From contig CAWJGT010000030.1 in NCBI GenBank assembly GCA_963842525.1, positions 1 through 64,000 of the forward strand: a DNA stretch of 64,000 nucleotides. Direction: 5' to 3'. Source of the stretch: an uncultured Holophagales bacterium. GTDB taxonomy: Bacteria > Acidobacteriota > Thermoanaerobaculia > Multivoradales > UBA5704. Of this stretch, positions 3,146 through 9,249 are shown piece after piece. Both the position numbers and the translations under genes were made by a program. A model generated the notes under the pieces. It made no database searches and was not told the origin of the DNA. It worked only from the letters and a program-made list of their open reading frames with translations. Every line of letters begins with the position of its first letter. Position 1 is the first letter of the stretch.

Positions 3146-6100
3146 ATGACGGTGGATCTCGCAATCTTCACGACCTTTCTCGTTCCGAGAACGCTCTCGC
3201 CAGCCCGCCGACCCAAGGAGTCCGAAGAGGGAGGCGGAGAGTCGCGGCCGGTGAGCAGCTTTTTCGATCGAGCCGCGGTTGTGGTCCTCGGAGATCCAGG
3301 CGCTGGGAAGACGGAGACCTTCAAGCAGGCGGCGAGAGAGGAAGCCGGAGTCTATCTGTCGGTCCGGAAGTTTGTCCGGCTCTCGCCCGAGCCCTACCGT
3401 GGGCAGGTTCTCTACCTGGACGGACTGGACGAGGTTCGGGCTCATTCTGCGGATGGCAACACCGCGATTGACGACGTGATCCGCAGGCTGGACCAGATCG
3501 GTCGCCCGAGGTTCCGCCTCTCCTGCCGAGCGGCTGATTGGTTCGGAGGGCTGGACAGGGGGGCTCTCCAAGAGGTCTCGCCGGACGGGGAGCTGACCGT
3601 CCTTCGCCTGGACCCCCTGACCGAAGAAGACATCACCGCCATCGTTGCCCAACAGGTGTCTGATCCTGAAGATTTCGTATCCCAGGCCAGGGCACGAGGA
3701 GTGTACGGGCTCCTGGAGAACCCCCATACGCTCGGGCTCATCCTCAAGGTCGTGGTGGGGCGCGGAGACTGGCCCGCTACGAAAAGAGATCTTTACGAAG
3801 AGGCCTGTCGGAGTCTGGCTCAGGAGAGAAACGAGGAGCATGCCCGCGGGCCGCGAGGGAGGATCGCTGAGGAGGCGGTGCTCGATGCCGCTGGCCAGCT
3901 CTGTGCCGTTCACCTCTGTGCGGGCACGGCGGGATTCGCCGTGGAAAGGCCCGCCGAAGACCAAGACTTTCCGTATATCGGCGTTCTCGGGGAGGACCGG
4001 CTTTCGGCTGCTTCTATCGCAGGTCGCCTCAATCTCTTCCGTTCGGAAGACCCAGAGACGATCGTCCCCCTGCACCGTTCTCGACGCCCTGGTCCATGGA
4101 ACGGCCATGCCGCAGCTCAGAGAACCGCTCCTGGCGATCGTGCGCGACCCGGAACGCCATTCGTTCCTGCGGAGAGACGCTCTGGCTGCATACCGCCATG
4201 CCTGTTCGGATGAAGAGGATTCCTTGCGTCAACTTTTGGATGAAATCCATGAGGGGGATCTCTCGGATCCACAAAATGACTTGCGCGTTTGGCTGCTCGA
4301 GGCGCTGTTTCCGCGCATACTCGGACTACGAGAGGTATTGCCCTATTTCGTCCTTGGGAATGAGAGATTCATTGGTCCCTACGCGAGTTTTCTGCGCCAT
4401 GGATTTCTCGATCGACTGGACGACGCGCACTTGGCGGACTTCCTCGACATCCTCTCTGAAGACTCGCGGCTCGCCGTCCCTTCCAACAGCCGCGTCCGCG
4501 ATTTCATCGGAGGGGCTGTGCTCCGCGGTCTGGAACTGCTGAAGGATCGAGTGCCTGTCGCGCGGCTTTATCGATGGCTGGGAGCGCAACTGGACGAGTA
4601 CGGATTCTCGTTTCTGGAATGGGAGCAAAAGAAGCGCTTGGTGGACTGGCTAAACGGCAATCCGGAAGTGGTGCGTGCCCTTTTCCTGCACTGGTTATCG
4701 ACAATGTCGCCTGACGATCTCCTGAAAGGGAGCCTCGACTTCTGGATTCACCGTTGCCCGGTCTCAATAACCTCTGACCTCCGCCGCTGGCTGTTGACCC
4801 TGGTGGATCAACAGCAGGATCCGCGAGTCGCAACCTTTCTGGTCTGGGGCGTCGCGAGATGGATTCTCCGGTGGGACCAGAACCCTCCGACTCAGGAAGA
4901 GGTGTCCGAGTTCGAGGATCTGGCCAGATTCGTTGGAGAGAGGCCTCACCTGAGTCCGGCATATCTCGAGGAGATCTCAAGGCCTGTCGATGAATTCCGG
5001 TTCAGGCATGCACGGATGGAGCAGGAGGGGCGCCGCAAATGGGAAGAACAGAGGCAAGCTGATCTCGAATCGCTCCGGCCGCGCACGGAAGAGATTCGGC
5101 GAGGCATAGGTCCTGGAGCACTCAACTTCCTTGCTGCGATCTACTTTGACAATACCGAAGAGCTCGGCGAAAAAGTGGAGCCCCGATTTCGGATCGAGCG
5201 GTATCTGGGGCCGGAGATCTCTGCGGCTGCACATTCCGGGTTCATCGCCGTGCTCGGCTCTTCGGGGGAGCCGGACCCCTCGGACATTGGAAGGGTCCGC
5301 AGCCAGGGACAGTCCTTCTACATTGACCGAGCCGTCCTGGCTGGAATCGAGATTCTCTGGGCCCAATCGCAGGAGGAGGTCCTGGCGCTGCCGAGGGAGT
5401 GCCTCGGCCGAGCGTTGGTGTTCCTGCTTGATCGTGGACGCTCTCTGAACACCGACTGGTCTCTGGCTGCCATTGCCCAAGATCCATCTGTAGCGGCCGA
5501 GTCTCTGGGGGCATACTGGCGCGCGCTTCTCGATCACAACCACGAAGACATCCAAGGGCTCTACGAGCTCGCTCACGAGGAATACATGAGGGCTGTTGCG
5601 GCGATGGTTGCGCCACGCCTCCTTGCCGACTTACCGAACGCCTCGCCCCGACCGCTCGAACACCTCTTGCTCGCCGGGTTGACACGAGGCGATCGAGGAA
5701 GCTTCGCATCTCTGGCGCAGGAAAAGCTCCAGTCGCCGGACAAGCTCGGGGAGGAGCAGCTAGGCTTATGGTTGACTGCTGCGTTCCTGGTGAGCCCGGA
5801 GGAGTTAGGGCCACGGCTTCAGATGTACGTAGCCCAGCATCCTGGACGTGCGCACGCGATGGCTTCCTTCGTTCACCAGGCTACAGATCTATCCGGCGAG
5901 CTGCTCGAGAACCTCCAAGTGATGAGATTTCTTGTCTTGGTTTTCGGCGTTGCTTGTCCACGACCCCAAGGCGAAGATCTCAATTTCGATCCGAGTTGGA
6001 GGACTTCGTCACTGGTTTCCTCGTTGCTCTCGAGACTGGGAGCTGATCCGTCGGAAGAGGCTCGCGAGAGTCTCTTGGCGTTGAAGGGAGACCAGCGCCT

Positions 6101-6794
6101 CTCCTCTTGGCACGTCCAGATCGCCCACCTGCTGGAGCTGCATGCCAGAAAGCGACGCGAAACCGCTTTCTCCTATCCAACTGTCGAGCAGGTCGTTGCC
6201 ACGCTCAAGAAAGGATCTCCTGCCAACGCAGCCGACCTCCAAGCTCTCGTCTGTGATCAGCTCCGAGGCCTGGCTGAAGAGATTCGAAATGGCGCGACCG
6301 ACGGCTACAAGGTCTTCTGGAATGTCAATTCTTACGGGAAGCCCGTGAAGCCACGTCCCGAAAACGATTGCCGTGACCGACTGGTGGAAAGGATCAGGCC
6401 TCTCCTTCTGCCATCCGGTATCTCCATGGAGACGGAGGCACGACACGCCGATCAGACGCGTGCGGATATCAAGTTCGTGTACGGAAACGTCAACATTCCT
6501 CTCGAGGCCAAGGTCCACACGAATGATGAGATCTGGACCGCGGTCGAGGGTCAGCTCATCCCACGCTACATGCGGGATCCAGGAGCCGCAAGGCTCGGGA
6601 TCTACCTGGTGTTCTGGTTCGGCCTGGACGTCGGGCGCACTGCCGCACCTCCGGCGGGTCTCCAGCTTCCAAGCAATGCCCAGGAGCTCCAGGCAGCCCT
6701 GGAGCAGACGGTGCCCCTCGAGCATTGGGGCCGTATCGAAGTCATCTGCAGCGATGTCTCGCGGCCTCCGGAGGGGAATCGAAGGAGCCGGTGA
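3146..6794 (+). pseudogene. STAND/NACHT-like NTPase with helical region and C-terminal PD-(D/E)xK-like nuclease; frame break near 4075
   Basis: Walker A GDPGAGKT, Walker B YLDGLDE, LSCR and NP-x-L motifs in ORF 3146-4213. Continues in another frame (ORF 3645-6794) ending in RADI...IPLEAK...GQL..RY...GIYLVFWFG. Confidence 0.7.
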
Positions 6795-7224
6795 GCCCAT
6801 CCCGGCACCAGGACGGCCGACTTCTTGGTGTGCAGTTAGTGCCCGTCACAAATCAACTGTCTCAACTCTTGCGAGTCGCTGTTCTACTACCTCCGAGAAT
6901 CCTCGTGCGGCGCGCAGATTTCGTCTCCACCCGGCCCAACGGGCCGGCAGAACGGAGCCCAGGGCTAAGGCCGAAGGCCGATGCCCTGGGCAGAGAGGTG
7001 ATCAAACCCCGCGGCCTGAAAGGCCCGCGAGAGATTTCTGCCGGAGTCGGCTCAGCGCTCGGTTCAGCCAGAGGTCTCGCGGCCTTTCAGGCCGCCTGAA
7101 CGTGGGGCCTGTTGACCCAGGGCATCGGCCTTCGGCCTCAGATGCTATGCAGGGCGGGGATGCAAAAGCGGGTCGCCGGTTGTATGTTTCGGGGGAACTT
7201 TAGCGGTTAGAAAGGAGAACCCCG

Positions 7225-8361
7225 ATGAACCAGACAACCCGCATTGCAGAGTCTACGCGAACGGAGGCGGTGTTACATATGGCCCTGGAGCTCGGCGCCA
7301 GCGAGTGGAAGCTGGGGTTTGGTGTAGAGGCTGGACGGAGGGCAAGTCAGCGGACAGTTGCAGCCGGGGACCTTGCCGGGCTGATGCTGGAGATCGCGCG
7401 GGCCAAACATCGCCTTGGCGTGCCGGAGTCGGCTCGGGTGGTGAGTTGCTACGAGGCCGGACGGGATGGATTCTGGCTCCACCGGTTCCTGCTGTCGGAG
7501 GGAGTGGAAAACGTTGTCATGGACTCCTCGAGCATCGAGGTGAATCGGCGGCATCGCCGGGCCAAGACGGATGGGGTGGACGTGGAGAAGTTGCTGTCGT
7601 TGTTGATCCGTTACGAGCGCGGGGAGAAGAAGGTGTTCGGGGTAGCGCACGCGCCGACCCCCGAGCAGGAGGACGAGCGTCACCTGGCTCGGGAGCTTGA
7701 GTCTCTGAAGCAGGAGCGCACGGCCCACACCAATCGGATCAAGGGCCTGCTGGCCAGCGTGGGGGCTCGGGGGGTGAAAGTCGGCAAGGGCTTTCTGCAG
7801 CAGCTGGATCAGGCGAGGCAGTGGAACGGCGAGAGGCTGCTGGCGAGCTTGCGGGAGCGTTTGAGGCGAGAGGGCGAGCGTCTGGCTGTGCTGGAGAGTC
7901 AGATTGCCGAGCTTGAGCGGTTTCGCCGGACGGCCAGCGTGGAAGCGACGGAGAAGGTGCAGCGGCTGCAAGAGCTCAAGGGGATCGGAGGCAACAGTGG
8001 TTGGCTGTTCGTGGTGGAGTTCTTCGGCTGGCGGCAGTTCCGCAACCGCCGTGAGGTGGCCGGTTTGGCGGGTCTGACGCCGATGCCTTATCAGAGCGGT
8101 GACACGGTCAACCACGAACAAGGGATCAGCAAGGCGGGGAATCGTCGGGTCCGGGCGATGGCGATCGAGATCGCTTGGGGCTGGTTGCGCTTCCAACCGC
8201 AGAGTCGCCTGAGCTTGTGGTTTCAGGAGCGTTATGGTCCTGGGAGCCGCCGATCTCGGCGGGTGGGGATCGTGGCCCTCGCCCGCAAGCTGCTGATCGC
8301 GCTGTGGCGCTATCTGGACTACGGTGTGATTCCTGAGGGTGCTGAGCTGAAGACGAAGTAA
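7225..8361 (+). CDS. IS110-family transposase/recombinase
   Basis: RuvC-like DEDD motifs (ALEL, CYEAG, KTDGVD) and C-terminal GLTPMPYQSG...GISKAGNRRVR...VALARKL. RBS AGGAG. Confidence 0.93.
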   Translation: MNQTTRIAESTRTEAVLHMALELGASEWKLGFGVEAGRRASQRTVAAGDLAGLMLEIARAKHRLGVPESARVVSCYEAGRDGFWLHRFLLSEGVENVVMDSSSIEVNRRHRRAKTDGVDVEKLLSLLIRYERGEKKVFGVAHAPTPEQEDERHLARELESLKQERTAHTNRIKGLLASVGARGVKVGKGFLQQLDQARQWNGERLLASLRERLRREGERLAVLESQIAELERFRRTASVEATEKVQRLQELKGIGGNSGWLFVVEFFGWRQFRNRREVAGLAGLTPMPYQSGDTVNHEQGISKAGNRRVRAMAIEIAWGWLRFQPQSRLSLWFQERYGPGSRRSRRVGIVALARKLLIALWRYLDYGVIPEGAELKTK

Positions 8362-8691
8362 TCTGGGAGGAAAAAGCTCGGAGAGAAACGACTGGTGGAG
8401 CGTGCCCGGCCCAGGGCTTGGTTCGGCTTCCGAACCGTTCTCTCAGATGGGGCCGCTCCGAGAGCTTGCCTGAGTCGCTCGACAGCGCATGCTGCATTTG
8501 GTGTCCTGACCCAAAGAGGTCAGCACGGATAGAAGCTGGAAAGGACGACTCCCCAGGTCCCTGCACACTCCGGGCAAGCGCCAGACGGACTGAGAACCAA
8601 GAAGCGAGAAAACCGGTGACAGGAGGGGGCCAGGAAAGGGAAAACGACGAACCACCACCCCGAGACGCTTGACACCGGTGGCCCACATAGA
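8362..8691 (+). ncRNA. Predicted bridge RNA/seekRNA region in the IS right end
   Basis: gcccagggct (8409-8418) is the reverse complement of core plus right target flank; ctcag (8442-8446) equals left flank plus core; atagaag (8529-8535) equals IS right end plus core. Each guide pair brackets a hairpin. RNA boundaries are unknown. Confidence 0.65.
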
Positions 8692-8794
8692 AGCCCTGGG
8701 CTGGAGTCTCCCGGCCCGTTGGGCCGGCCTGGAAGGCTTGGGTTGCGGGCAAGCGCGAGCCCGCGCTGAGAAGTGATCTCCGTGGGTACTCGCA

Positions 8795-9249
8795 GTGGTC
8801 CCACGAGACCGGCAGTGTTCGTCGCGGGCCCATGTACATTCGCCGTGGTGGCTGGCGGTGGTCTCGCGGGACCGGCGGTGTTCGCCGCGGGCCCATGTAC
8901 ATTCCCCCGCGGTGGCTGGCAGTGGTCCCGCGGGACCGGCGGTGTTCGCCGCGGGCGCATGTACGTTCGCCGTGGTGGCTGGCGGTGGTCCCGCGGGACC
9001 GGCGGTGTTCGCCGCGGGCGCATGTACGTTCGCCGTGGTGGCTGGCAGTGGTCCCGCGGGACCGGCGGTGTTCGCCGCGGGCGCATGTACGTTCGCCGCG
9101 GTGGCTGGCGGTGGTCCCGCGGGACCGGCGGTGTTCGCCGCGGGCGCATGTATATTCGCCGTGGTGGCTGGCAGTGGTCCCGCGGGACCGGCGGTGTTCG
9201 CCGCGGGCGCATGTACGTTCGCCGTGGTGGCTGGCAGTGGTCCCGCGGG
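8795..9249. repeat. Tandem array of about 7 copies of a 63-bp unit (three related 21-bp subunits)
   Basis: Unit gtggtcccgcgggaccggcggtgttcgccgcgggcgcatgtacgttcgccgtggtggctggc(a/g) starts at 8795, 8858, 8922, 8985, 9048, 9111, 9174 and partially at 9237. Confidence 0.95.

Follow-up and report, generated by a model that had tools for sequence, protein, structure and literature searches.

The locus studied here raises the question of whether a mobile element carries, within its own sequence, the instructions for where it is to be inserted. It lies in a window of 64,000 nucleotides (nt) from the genome of an uncultured Holophagales bacterium, in which an insertion sequence (IS) of the IS110 family occupies positions 7140-8693. 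It has been known since 2024 that IS110 elements use an RNA of their own to read both their ends and their insertion site, and a first-pass annotation of the window had proposed that this element is such a member, with target and donor guides in its right end. From the data below we conclude that the element is almost certainly an intact IS110-family IS with an IS1111-like layout, the right end of which encodes a predicted bispecific bridge RNA (seekRNA) of ~150 nt. Elements guided by bridge RNAs or seekRNAs are a known kind, of which the window element is a further member, and the finding is confirmatory more than surprising. Its added value lies in the retargeting seen among three lineages of one genome, in a map, resolved to single bases, of the guides of a widespread and mostly uncultured clade, and in a single covarying handshake base.

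The element is composed of a core dinucleotide AG (7140-7141), an 83-nt left end (7142-7224), the recombinase gene (7225-8361), which encodes 378 amino acids and is the sole long open reading frame (ORF) between the junctions, a 330-nt right end and the core once more (8692-8693); these and all features given below are on the plus strand. The insertion point is inside a palindrome resembling a repetitive extragenic palindrome (REP), which is thereby split into a left target half, ggcctc (7134-7139), and a right target half, CCCTGGGC (8694-8701). On the opposite strand the core reads CT, i.e., the IS621 core in guide polarity. The predicted RNA gene spans 8391-8539, as defined by the match of a covariance model introduced below (119.5 bits). 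In its target loop, the right-target guide GCCCAGGGCU (8409-8418) complements the top strand of AG plus CCCTGGGC (8692-8701), and the left-target guide CUC plus AG (8442-8446) has the same sense as the left flank, of which CTC (7137-7139) is the part that is read. In its donor loop, the right-donor guide GCAU (8494-8497) complements the left-end bases ATGC (7142-7145), and the left-donor guide AUAGA plus AG (8529-8535) has the same sense as the right terminus cataga (8686-8691) and the core that it abuts. All the strings that had been reported in the first pass for the two junctions, the target loop and the donor loop were found in place. The 10-mer GCCCAGGGCT is present three times in the 64-kb window, once each within the RNA, the right flank and a neighboring REP, whereas 0.44 occurrences are expected by chance and three were reached in none of 100 shuffles.

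The genome from which the window is derived comprises 9.95 Mb in 34 contigs, with the window corresponding to contig C30, and a DNA search of it returned 18 matches, which consist of 11 full copies, one 5'-truncated copy of lineage A, a 66-bp solo right end and small pieces. The full copies fall into three lineages. Lineage A has five full-length copies that are ~100% identical to the window copy and are flanked by ggcCTC-AG-CCCTGGGc (target sequence ctcAGccctgggc), with ggcctc present in all five; lineage B has two copies of 87-88% identity, flanked by (a/t)CTC-AG-CTCCGCCCga; and lineage C has four copies of 77% identity, flanked by gcaTAA-AG-CCTGGCGc (target sequence taaAGcctggcgc). The corresponding proteins are 95% (A versus B) and 78% (A versus C) identical. 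All 11 full copies start with AG-ATGCTATGCAGGGCG and finish with CCACATAGA-AG, so that the core AG is present at both junctions in each case, and uninterrupted sites hold a single AG. The three lineages thus have identical ends and use three different repeat families as sites. The empty target predicted in the first pass, ggcctc-AG-CCCTGGGC, does exist: the 16-mer ggcctcAGccctgggc occurs 11 times uninterrupted in the genome, always within the same REP-like repeat. For lineage B, five exact 13-mers of the empty site were found, three of which share one repeat context, and for lineage C there were 19 exact 13-mers (46 for the 10-mer), located in another palindromic repeat. With exemplar repeats as queries, blastn detected 25 copies of the A repeat, 5 of the B repeat and 13 of the C repeat at a repeat coverage of 80% or more. 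Two insertions have occurred at imperfect sites, an A copy on C21 (CCCTGAG) and a C copy on C19 (CCTGGGGT); both sites mismatch the guide at right-flank position 6, far from the core, and the C19 site also at position 8.

An identical protein of 378 amino acids is encoded by four of the five full A copies, the fifth being frameshifted, and the presence of five ~100% identical copies at five sites, four with the same intact protein, argues for recent movement. The RNA model had exactly 12 matches in this genome, each of them inside an IS copy, so there are no orphan RNA genes. Three copies of lineage A are decayed. A 1-nt insertion shortens the ORF to 325 amino acids in the copy at C11:201257-202822, the copy at C9:1835716-1836563 is 5'-truncated and retains the RNA and the right junction, and a 66-bp solo right end is found at C12:20664-20729. 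Among the A copies, a run of G in the left end (7156-7160) varies between GGGG and GGGGG, and a second G run in the right end varies as well.

Evidence for a guiding role of the target loop comes from the comparison of these lineages. In the alignment of the A, B and C right ends, 13 invariant bases (GGAGCGTGCCCGG) are followed by nine lineage-specific bases, which are CCCAGGGCT in A, GGCGGAGCT in B and CGCCAGGCT in C or, when written as RNA, CCCAGGGCU, GGCGGAGCU and CGCCAGGCU. When reverse complemented, each of these blocks is identical to AG followed by the first 7 nt of its own lineage's right flank, which amounts to agreement at 21 of 21 noncore positions. Any two lineages differ at three to four of the seven guide positions, and every one of these differences is compensated in the target DNA. 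The other arm of the loop, past the GGTTCGG/CCGAACC hairpin, reads CUCAG in A, CUCAG in B and UAAAG in C, in each case the lineage's own left flank plus core. The donor loop (GCATTT ... ATAGAAG) and the element ends are unchanged across the three lineages. Homologs that kept the same loop letters in spite of different targets had been named in the first pass as the finding that would speak against guiding; here the target-loop letters change along with the target. The right flanks of the A, B and C targets all begin with C, as would be required by their common donor loop, in which C8536 follows the left-donor guide. The element had been called potentially reprogrammable, and the natural retargeting leads us to infer the same.

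Relatives were sought in a scan of one genome per prokaryote species, which yielded at least 591 candidate stretches, at least 551 of which encode a relative; the best 80 were kept. These 80 foreign loci encode proteins of 51-63% identity, apart from one of 83% in an Acidobacteriota metagenome-assembled genome, that align over 373-378 residues, and their hosts belong to the Acidobacteriota, Chloroflexota, Planctomycetota, Gemmatimonadota, Armatimonadota and other phyla. More distant relatives (best identities of 43-54%) are present in a plasmid collection from the cultured genera Cupriavidus, Paraburkholderia and others, where they are labeled just "IS110 family transposase." A sequence profile of the A, B and C RNA region found 75 matching places in the 80 loci. 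A covariance model (R1), built from 23 sequences and used at an E-value threshold of 0.001 or lower, gave 93 matches in 92 sources, all of them on the gene strand and directly downstream of the recombinase gene; neither in these sources nor in the own genome was there an R1 match upstream of the gene. The seed of R1 was the fold of a MAFFT alignment that is not structure aware and in which the B and C rows are without the first ~10 columns, and pair counts were therefore taken from a later, model-fitted alignment. Two RNA matches in inverted orientation were seen at locus L032 (2879-3021 on the plus and 3736-3878 on the minus strand) and two matches each at L022 and L023, which suggests neighboring or nested elements.

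In the model-fitted alignment of 77 distinct rows, standard pairs occupy 97.2% of 1348 cells, and 12 of the 18 pairs show changes on both sides (169 cells). The observed values were reached in none of 500 shuffles for four of five measures and in 19 of 500 for the count of pairs. Being fitted to the model, this alignment leans toward the model's structure by construction; however, when the partner was slid by one to three columns, pairing fell to 24-52%, and this control, together with the many G-U pairs on the gene strand, argues that the structure is real and strand specific rather than an artifact. Helix 1, which closes the target loop, is formed by GGAGCG.GCCC (8397-8402 and 8404-8407) and GGGC.CGCUCC (8450-8453 and 8454-8459). 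Six of its eight pairs show changes on both sides, 96.5% of the cells are paired, and at two pairs there are 10 GU and 10 UG combinations. This helix (8397-8407 with 8450-8459) replaces the closing stem cggcc/ggccg proposed in the first pass, since covariation supports the former instead. The apical hairpin of the target loop, GGUUCGG CUU CCGAACC (8420-8436, arms 8420-8426 and 8430-8436), contains helix 2 at its base, which is conserved and 99.6% paired. The apical hairpin of the donor loop, GUG..CUGACC/GGUCAG CAC (8501-8526, with ctgacc at 8506-8511 and ggtcag at 8518-8523), corresponds to helices 3-5, which are 92-99% paired and have changes on both sides in five of seven pairs.

The relatives also permitted the check, suggested in the first pass, of whether loop sequences covary with target sites. 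Their element ends were located by the near-invariant CATAGAAG at the right and AGATnnTATG at the left. For the right-target guide, a 10-mer composed of G and nine bases of the flank was reverse complemented, and its best ungapped match with the 5' arm was scored for 52 distinct RNAs (58 loci with a right flank). The mean self score was 7.3 of 10, compared with 5.47 (standard deviation, 1.0) over 2642 nonself pairings, and this self mean was reached in none of 2000 permutations; 22 RNAs scored at least 8, 11 scored 9 and none scored 10. The left-target guide, examined in a fixed register, matched flank positions -1 to -5 in 100, 92, 88, 67 and 73% of 49 distinct RNAs, as against 24-44% for nonself pairings, whereas agreement at positions -6 to -8 was at background level. 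All three proximal bases match in 39 of these 49 RNAs and two of three in the other 10 (0 of 5000 permutations), and the core columns of this guide are AG in 53 of 53 relatives. As a correction to the first pass, the left-target guide pairs over just 3 nt plus core in the window copy, whereas it extends to 5 nt plus core in relatives.

The donor loop covaries in part with the left end of its own element. Left-end bases 3-6 that read ATGC are faced by a fully complementary GCAU in 11 of 12 cases, and those that read ATCC by GGAU in 9 of 9; ATAC is faced by GUAU in 5 of 15 cases (and by GCAU in 6), and ATAA by UUAU in 5 of 13. None of 5000 permutations reached the observed value. In the first pass, gcattt had been taken as a guide matching at five of six positions. 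GCAU (8494-8497) does act as expected of a guide, but the UU that faces the core (8498-8499), capable of U.G and U-A pairing at best, is not conserved: the corresponding pair is CU in only 1 of 49 RNAs, with UG in 15, UU in 8 and UA in 7. The segment is hence better read as four guiding bases and a nonpairing or wobble spacer. Neither the left-donor guide AUAGAAG nor the right end CATAGA|AG shows much variation in the clade, and a constant match of this kind is outside the reach of covariation.

An unbiased scan, in which every RNA column was compared with every target and donor position for 53 distinct RNAs with both ends (200 permutations), recovered the same guides. Columns of the 5' arm were complementary to right-flank positions 1-5 (z of 5-9.5) in the expected strand sense, columns of the 3' arm were identical to left-flank positions -5 to -1, and donor columns 150 and 151 were complementary to left-end bases 3 and 4. 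The scan revealed in addition a signal that had not been listed in the first pass. In 51 of 53 RNAs (C-C in 19, G-G in 20 and T-T in 12; null, 34%; z of 9.6), the base after AUAGAAG, which in the window is C8536, is identical to the one with which the right target flank starts. Likewise, the AU that follows the core of the left-target guide (8447-8448 in the window) has the same letters as the start of the left end and is present opposite the left-end AT in 47 of 53 relatives; because this AT is invariant, the AU extension is beyond covariation testing. With these matches, both 3' arms extend into the recombined junctions, ctc-AG-AT at the left and ataga-AG-C at the right, as handshake-like bases would. 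No covarying handshake base was detected 3' of the 5' arms, i.e., beside the right-target and right-donor guides in the top-frame sense, where U/G and the GG of an invariant GGUG are structural.

The protein agrees with this assignment. The recombinase of 378 amino acids scores 183 bits against NF033542, the NCBIfam model "IS110 family RNA-guided transposase" (cut-off, 140), and 63.1 bits against Pfam family PF02371 (cut-off, 21.3; E-value, 3e-17). An AlphaFold2 model based on a 26-sequence alignment (predicted local distance difference test, 82.5; predicted template modeling score, 0.72) consists of a RuvC-like N-terminal domain, in which the order strand-strand-strand-helix-strand is seen, a long coiled coil and a helical C-terminal Tnp domain. 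The top ten matches of a Foldseek search against the PDB were chains of the ISCro4 and IS621 bridge-recombinase complexes, with E-values of 5e-12 to 8e-10, 361-367 aligned columns, template modeling scores of 0.46-0.57 and 16-20% identity. The segment GLTPMPYQSG (S291) aligns with GLTPRRYESG, which contains the ESG serine motif of IS621 and ISCro4. The putative catalytic residues E77, D116, D119 and S291, assigned by motif position and predicted secondary structure rather than by superposition, are kept in 52-53 of 53 clade members. Taken together, a protein above the NF033542 cut-off, guides that covary with the flanks and a fold that matches IS621 and ISCro4 uphold the first-pass reading of an IS110 element with a bispecific RNA. 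In the B (L006/L007) and C (L009-L012) copies, the recombinase frame continues upstream without a stop as far as an ATG located no more than 10 nt into the left end, corresponding to 404 and 405 amino acids, whereas this upstream extension is closed in lineage A; transcripts of B and C that enter from outside or from a circle junction could be translated from this left-end ATG.

A number of observations weigh against this reading of the element. The IS110 model of Pfam for the N-terminal part, PF01548 (DEDD_Tnp_IS110), gave 22.3 bits and is below its own cut-off of 29, and the alignment to IS621 and ISCro4 by sequence is confined to the C-terminal domain. The first acidic residue of the RuvC-like domain, located at the end of predicted strand 1 of the AlphaFold2 model, is Glu (E22, window 7288-7290) and not Asp. 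IS110 recombinases have been described with Asp as the first residue of the DEDD motif. The right-target match is imperfect in relatives, with a median of 7 of 10 and a few loci at 5 of 10, and the covariation of the donor guide is partial, as evidenced by the ATAC and ATAA ends. In the free RNA, CUU at 8465-8467 could pair with AAG at 8533-8535 and partly hide the left-donor guide, and this pairing, being invariant, is one that covariation cannot test. As for expression, no RNA was observed: five public sequencing runs hold 5-17% of the sampled words, the contigs of the four examined are 90-99% alike and thus belong to relatives, and these small shares show neither ends nor strand. Two of these four runs are on record as RNA, cover just parts of the gene and speak neither for nor against the RNA. 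A scan of 7000-8800 for sigma-70-like promoters found none. All three lineages have a conserved TTGACA 17 nt ahead of the core (8669-8674 in the window), and a junction promoter of the kind present in IS621 and ISEc11 might use it as its -35 box; inspection by eye of the joined right end-left end junction revealed no good -10 hexamer 16-19 nt after it.

Three explanations other than a working bridge RNA need to be weighed against these data. The complementarity between loop and flank could be due to chance or to a captured piece of a REP that has no guiding role. Since the target repeat is palindromic, a piece taken from a REP would find a match in the opposite arm of that repeat, and the left arm of the REP, ACCCAGGGCA, does resemble the guide at 8 of 10 positions. 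Such an origin is barely credible in view of lineages B and C, which have unrelated targets and carry exactly matching letters at the same RNA position, of the same relation in 52 unrelated RNAs (with the permutation result given above) and of the scaffold around the guide letters, which is conserved across phyla. A different possibility is that the guides act as DNA, in that the right end folds as a single strand and pairs with the target, as IS200/IS605 elements do with their subterminal hairpins and guide bases. Elements of that group, exemplified by IS608, pick their site by pairing part of their own sequence with the target; they do so with a guide of single-stranded DNA and by means of an HUH transposase. 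All the evidence gathered here is DNA sequence, with neither a transcript nor a promoter seen, and covariation between guide and flank would look identical for a DNA guide. Nevertheless, the helices tolerate G-U combinations on the gene strand (10 GU and 10 UG in helix 1), which points to the sense strand, the RNA is always encoded on the coding strand directly after the gene, and the protein is not an HUH transposase but a member of a family for which RNA guidance has been demonstrated experimentally, as described in PMC11187229 and PMC11208160. We consider a DNA guide highly improbable.

The third explanation accepts a true bridge-RNA element but takes the lineage to be inactive by now, or not reprogrammable in practice, owing to the Glu at the first catalytic position or to missing expression signals. 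The Glu itself, the result of the promoter scan and the frameshift and truncation of one A copy each are in line with this idea. On the other hand, residue 22 is Glu in 51 of 53 clade members (A-x-E-L-G/S; one Asp and one gap in the others), which makes it a rule of a clade that has hundreds of members (at least 551 confirmed), and the five ~100% identical A copies at five sites, four of which encode the same intact protein, argue for recent movement. Inactivity is thus unlikely, and an intact element with a predicted bridge RNA remains the preferred reading.

The way in which such an element would operate can be outlined from its anatomy, its empty sites and the covariation of both structure and guides, all established at the level of sequence; transcription, binding of the RNA by the protein, a circle intermediate and the chemistry would be as in characterized family members, by analogy. 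In the target loop, the 5' arm GCCCAGGGCU would pair with the top strand across core and right flank, and the 3' arm CUCAG with the bottom strand across left flank and core. The donor loop would read the joined element ends, GCAU being directed at the left end and AUAGAAG at the right end plus core. A tetramer of the serine/RuvC-type recombinase may hold both loops, as judged by homology with IS621 and ISEc11, and strand exchange would take place at the common AG (CT) core, by which the circularized element would be inserted into a 12-13-bp site inside the REP-like repeat. The AU at 8447-8448 and C8536 match the recombined junctions and not the substrates, and they are probably handshake guides that favor insertion.

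A further proposal concerns the relatives as a whole. They may represent a distinct clade of bridge recombinases that comprises several hundred loci in many phyla, the hosts being for the most part uncultured bacteria of soil and sediment. The clade would be defined by Glu in place of the first Asp, a near-fixed donor CATAGA|AG|AT with a CT/AG core and an RNA in the right end, and in it a single donor-loop base, the one after the left-donor guide, would have to be identical to the base with which the right flank starts. This proposal is tentative and, as a package, rather doubtful. If it is true, retargeting in the target loop is coupled to one donor-loop position by a simple natural rule, one that has yet to be formulated for RNAs of the right-end (IS1111-like) type, and this single-base rule would explain why A, B and C all choose targets that begin with C.

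The surroundings of the element and the remainder of its right end have several features of their own. Positions 8540-8691 show little conservation when the A, B and C right ends are aligned; the exception is the terminal ~45 nt, where TTGACA and the right subterminal repeat GGCCCACATAG (8680-8690) are located. The left subterminal repeat CTATGCAGGGC (7145-7155) matches the reverse complement of the right one at 8 of 11 positions. A second REP-like repeat of the lineage A type, inverted in orientation, precedes the occupied one by ~150 nt (6955-6990 and 7079-7097, with GCCCAGGGCT at 6957), and a small GC-rich hairpin, cgcggcctttcaggccgc, accompanies the REP-like repeat at most A sites. An ORF of 1049 amino acids (3645-6794) ends ~350 nt to the left of the element. 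Immediately to its right there is a tandem array (8792-9249) of a 63-bp unit in 7.3 copies with 93% matches, which opens long ORFs in several frames. No Rfam family reached its gathering score in the window. A match to mir-105 (31 bits compared with the required 68) falls into the tandem array and is spurious, and matches to Acido-Lenti-1 and BSnc115, with E-values above 1, are on REP hairpins.

Programmable tools for DNA insertion are under development from RNA-guided IS110 recombinases, and in this context the locus contributes a complete ortholog that is mapped to the base, comprising a recombinase, a predicted RNA of ~150 nt, a 12-13-bp target and a donor junction. As three sister lineages in one genome combine one donor loop with three target loops and targets, the locus is a clean natural experiment as well. 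The clade provides rules for the scaffold, namely, a right guide of 7-8 nt plus core, a left guide of 3-5 nt plus core, four donor bases and one handshake base. With regard to genome biology, the data show how such elements have spread among different small repeat families in one large genome.

Comparison with known systems places the element closest in layout to the IS1111 type, represented by ISEc11, ISPa11 and ISKpn4. As described by Siddiquee et al. (2024, PMC11187229), IS1111-type seekRNAs are encoded in a noncoding region downstream of the gene and have the match to the top strand 5' of the match to the bottom strand, and Durrant et al. (2024, PMC11208160) report that IS1111 bridge RNAs are in the right end, as inferred for 93% of IS1111 entries. 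The window element likewise has its long noncoding region downstream of the gene (a left end of 83 nt versus a right end of 330 nt), a segment complementary to the top strand that is 5' of, and overlaps at the insertion point with, the segment complementary to the bottom strand, the GL-P----SG motif, lineage-specific targets and candidate subterminal repeats at its ends. According to the same description, IS1111 transposases have 330-350 amino acids and subterminal inverted repeats of 7-17 bp (PMC11187229). The window recombinase, with 378 amino acids, is larger than this range, the N-terminal Pfam model is below its cut-off, and the repeat is short, matching at 8 of 11 positions, with just (C)TATG/CATA(G) conserved in the clade. 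Siddiquee et al. mention, furthermore, an IS110-type group with a downstream noncoding region (PMC11187229). The element is consequently filed as having an IS1111-like layout and not as a proven IS1111 member, the comparison being with the published description of IS1111 only.

The element also resembles ISPpu9 and ISPpu10 of Pseudomonas putida, IS110-family elements that are described as present in several copies inside repetitive extragenic palindromes, and ISPpu9, again by description only, in having a small RNA gene downstream of the transposase gene; unlike ISPpu9, for which additional orphan copies of the small RNA are reported, all 12 RNA copies here are inside IS copies (PMC12288879; bioRxiv 10.64898/2026.03.19.712850). 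IS200/IS605 elements are similar in that their own sequence is used for the choice of target, but the window protein is a RuvC/serine IS110 recombinase.

The most detailed correspondence is that with IS621 and ISCro4, which provide the best fold match, although identity is 16-20% and the first catalytic residue is Glu. As in the descriptions of these systems by Durrant et al. (PMC11208160) and Hiraizumi et al. (2024, PMC11208158), the predicted RNA has a pair of internal loops, either of which reads the two DNA strands about a common 2-nt core, with one long arm (7 nt plus core) and one short arm (3-5 nt plus core). In IS621, the 5' arm of each loop is the long guide in top-strand sense, the core is CT and the RNA gene is in the left end (PMC11208160), and bases located by the short guides act as handshake guides, finding their pairing partner in DNA only after strand exchange and pushing the reaction toward insertion (PMC11208158, PMC13626964). 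The window element shares the CT core in guide polarity, a REP-like target repeat and bases 3' of the short arms that match the partner DNA in a handshake-like manner. An RNA in the left end, as in IS110 elements in the narrow, IS621-like sense, was not found, the left end measuring 83 nt and there being no RNA match upstream of the gene. Instead, the block of gene plus RNA is inverted relative to the recombination site, the RNA gene being in the right end and its predicted transcription directed toward the flank of the long guide. When written on the other strand, the target of the 5' arm becomes the reverse complement of the right flank plus CT, and the architecture in guide polarity is then the same as that of IS621, consisting of a long 5' arm, CT, a short 3' arm and handshake bases, with one covarying donor-loop handshake base in the present clade compared with two in IS621.

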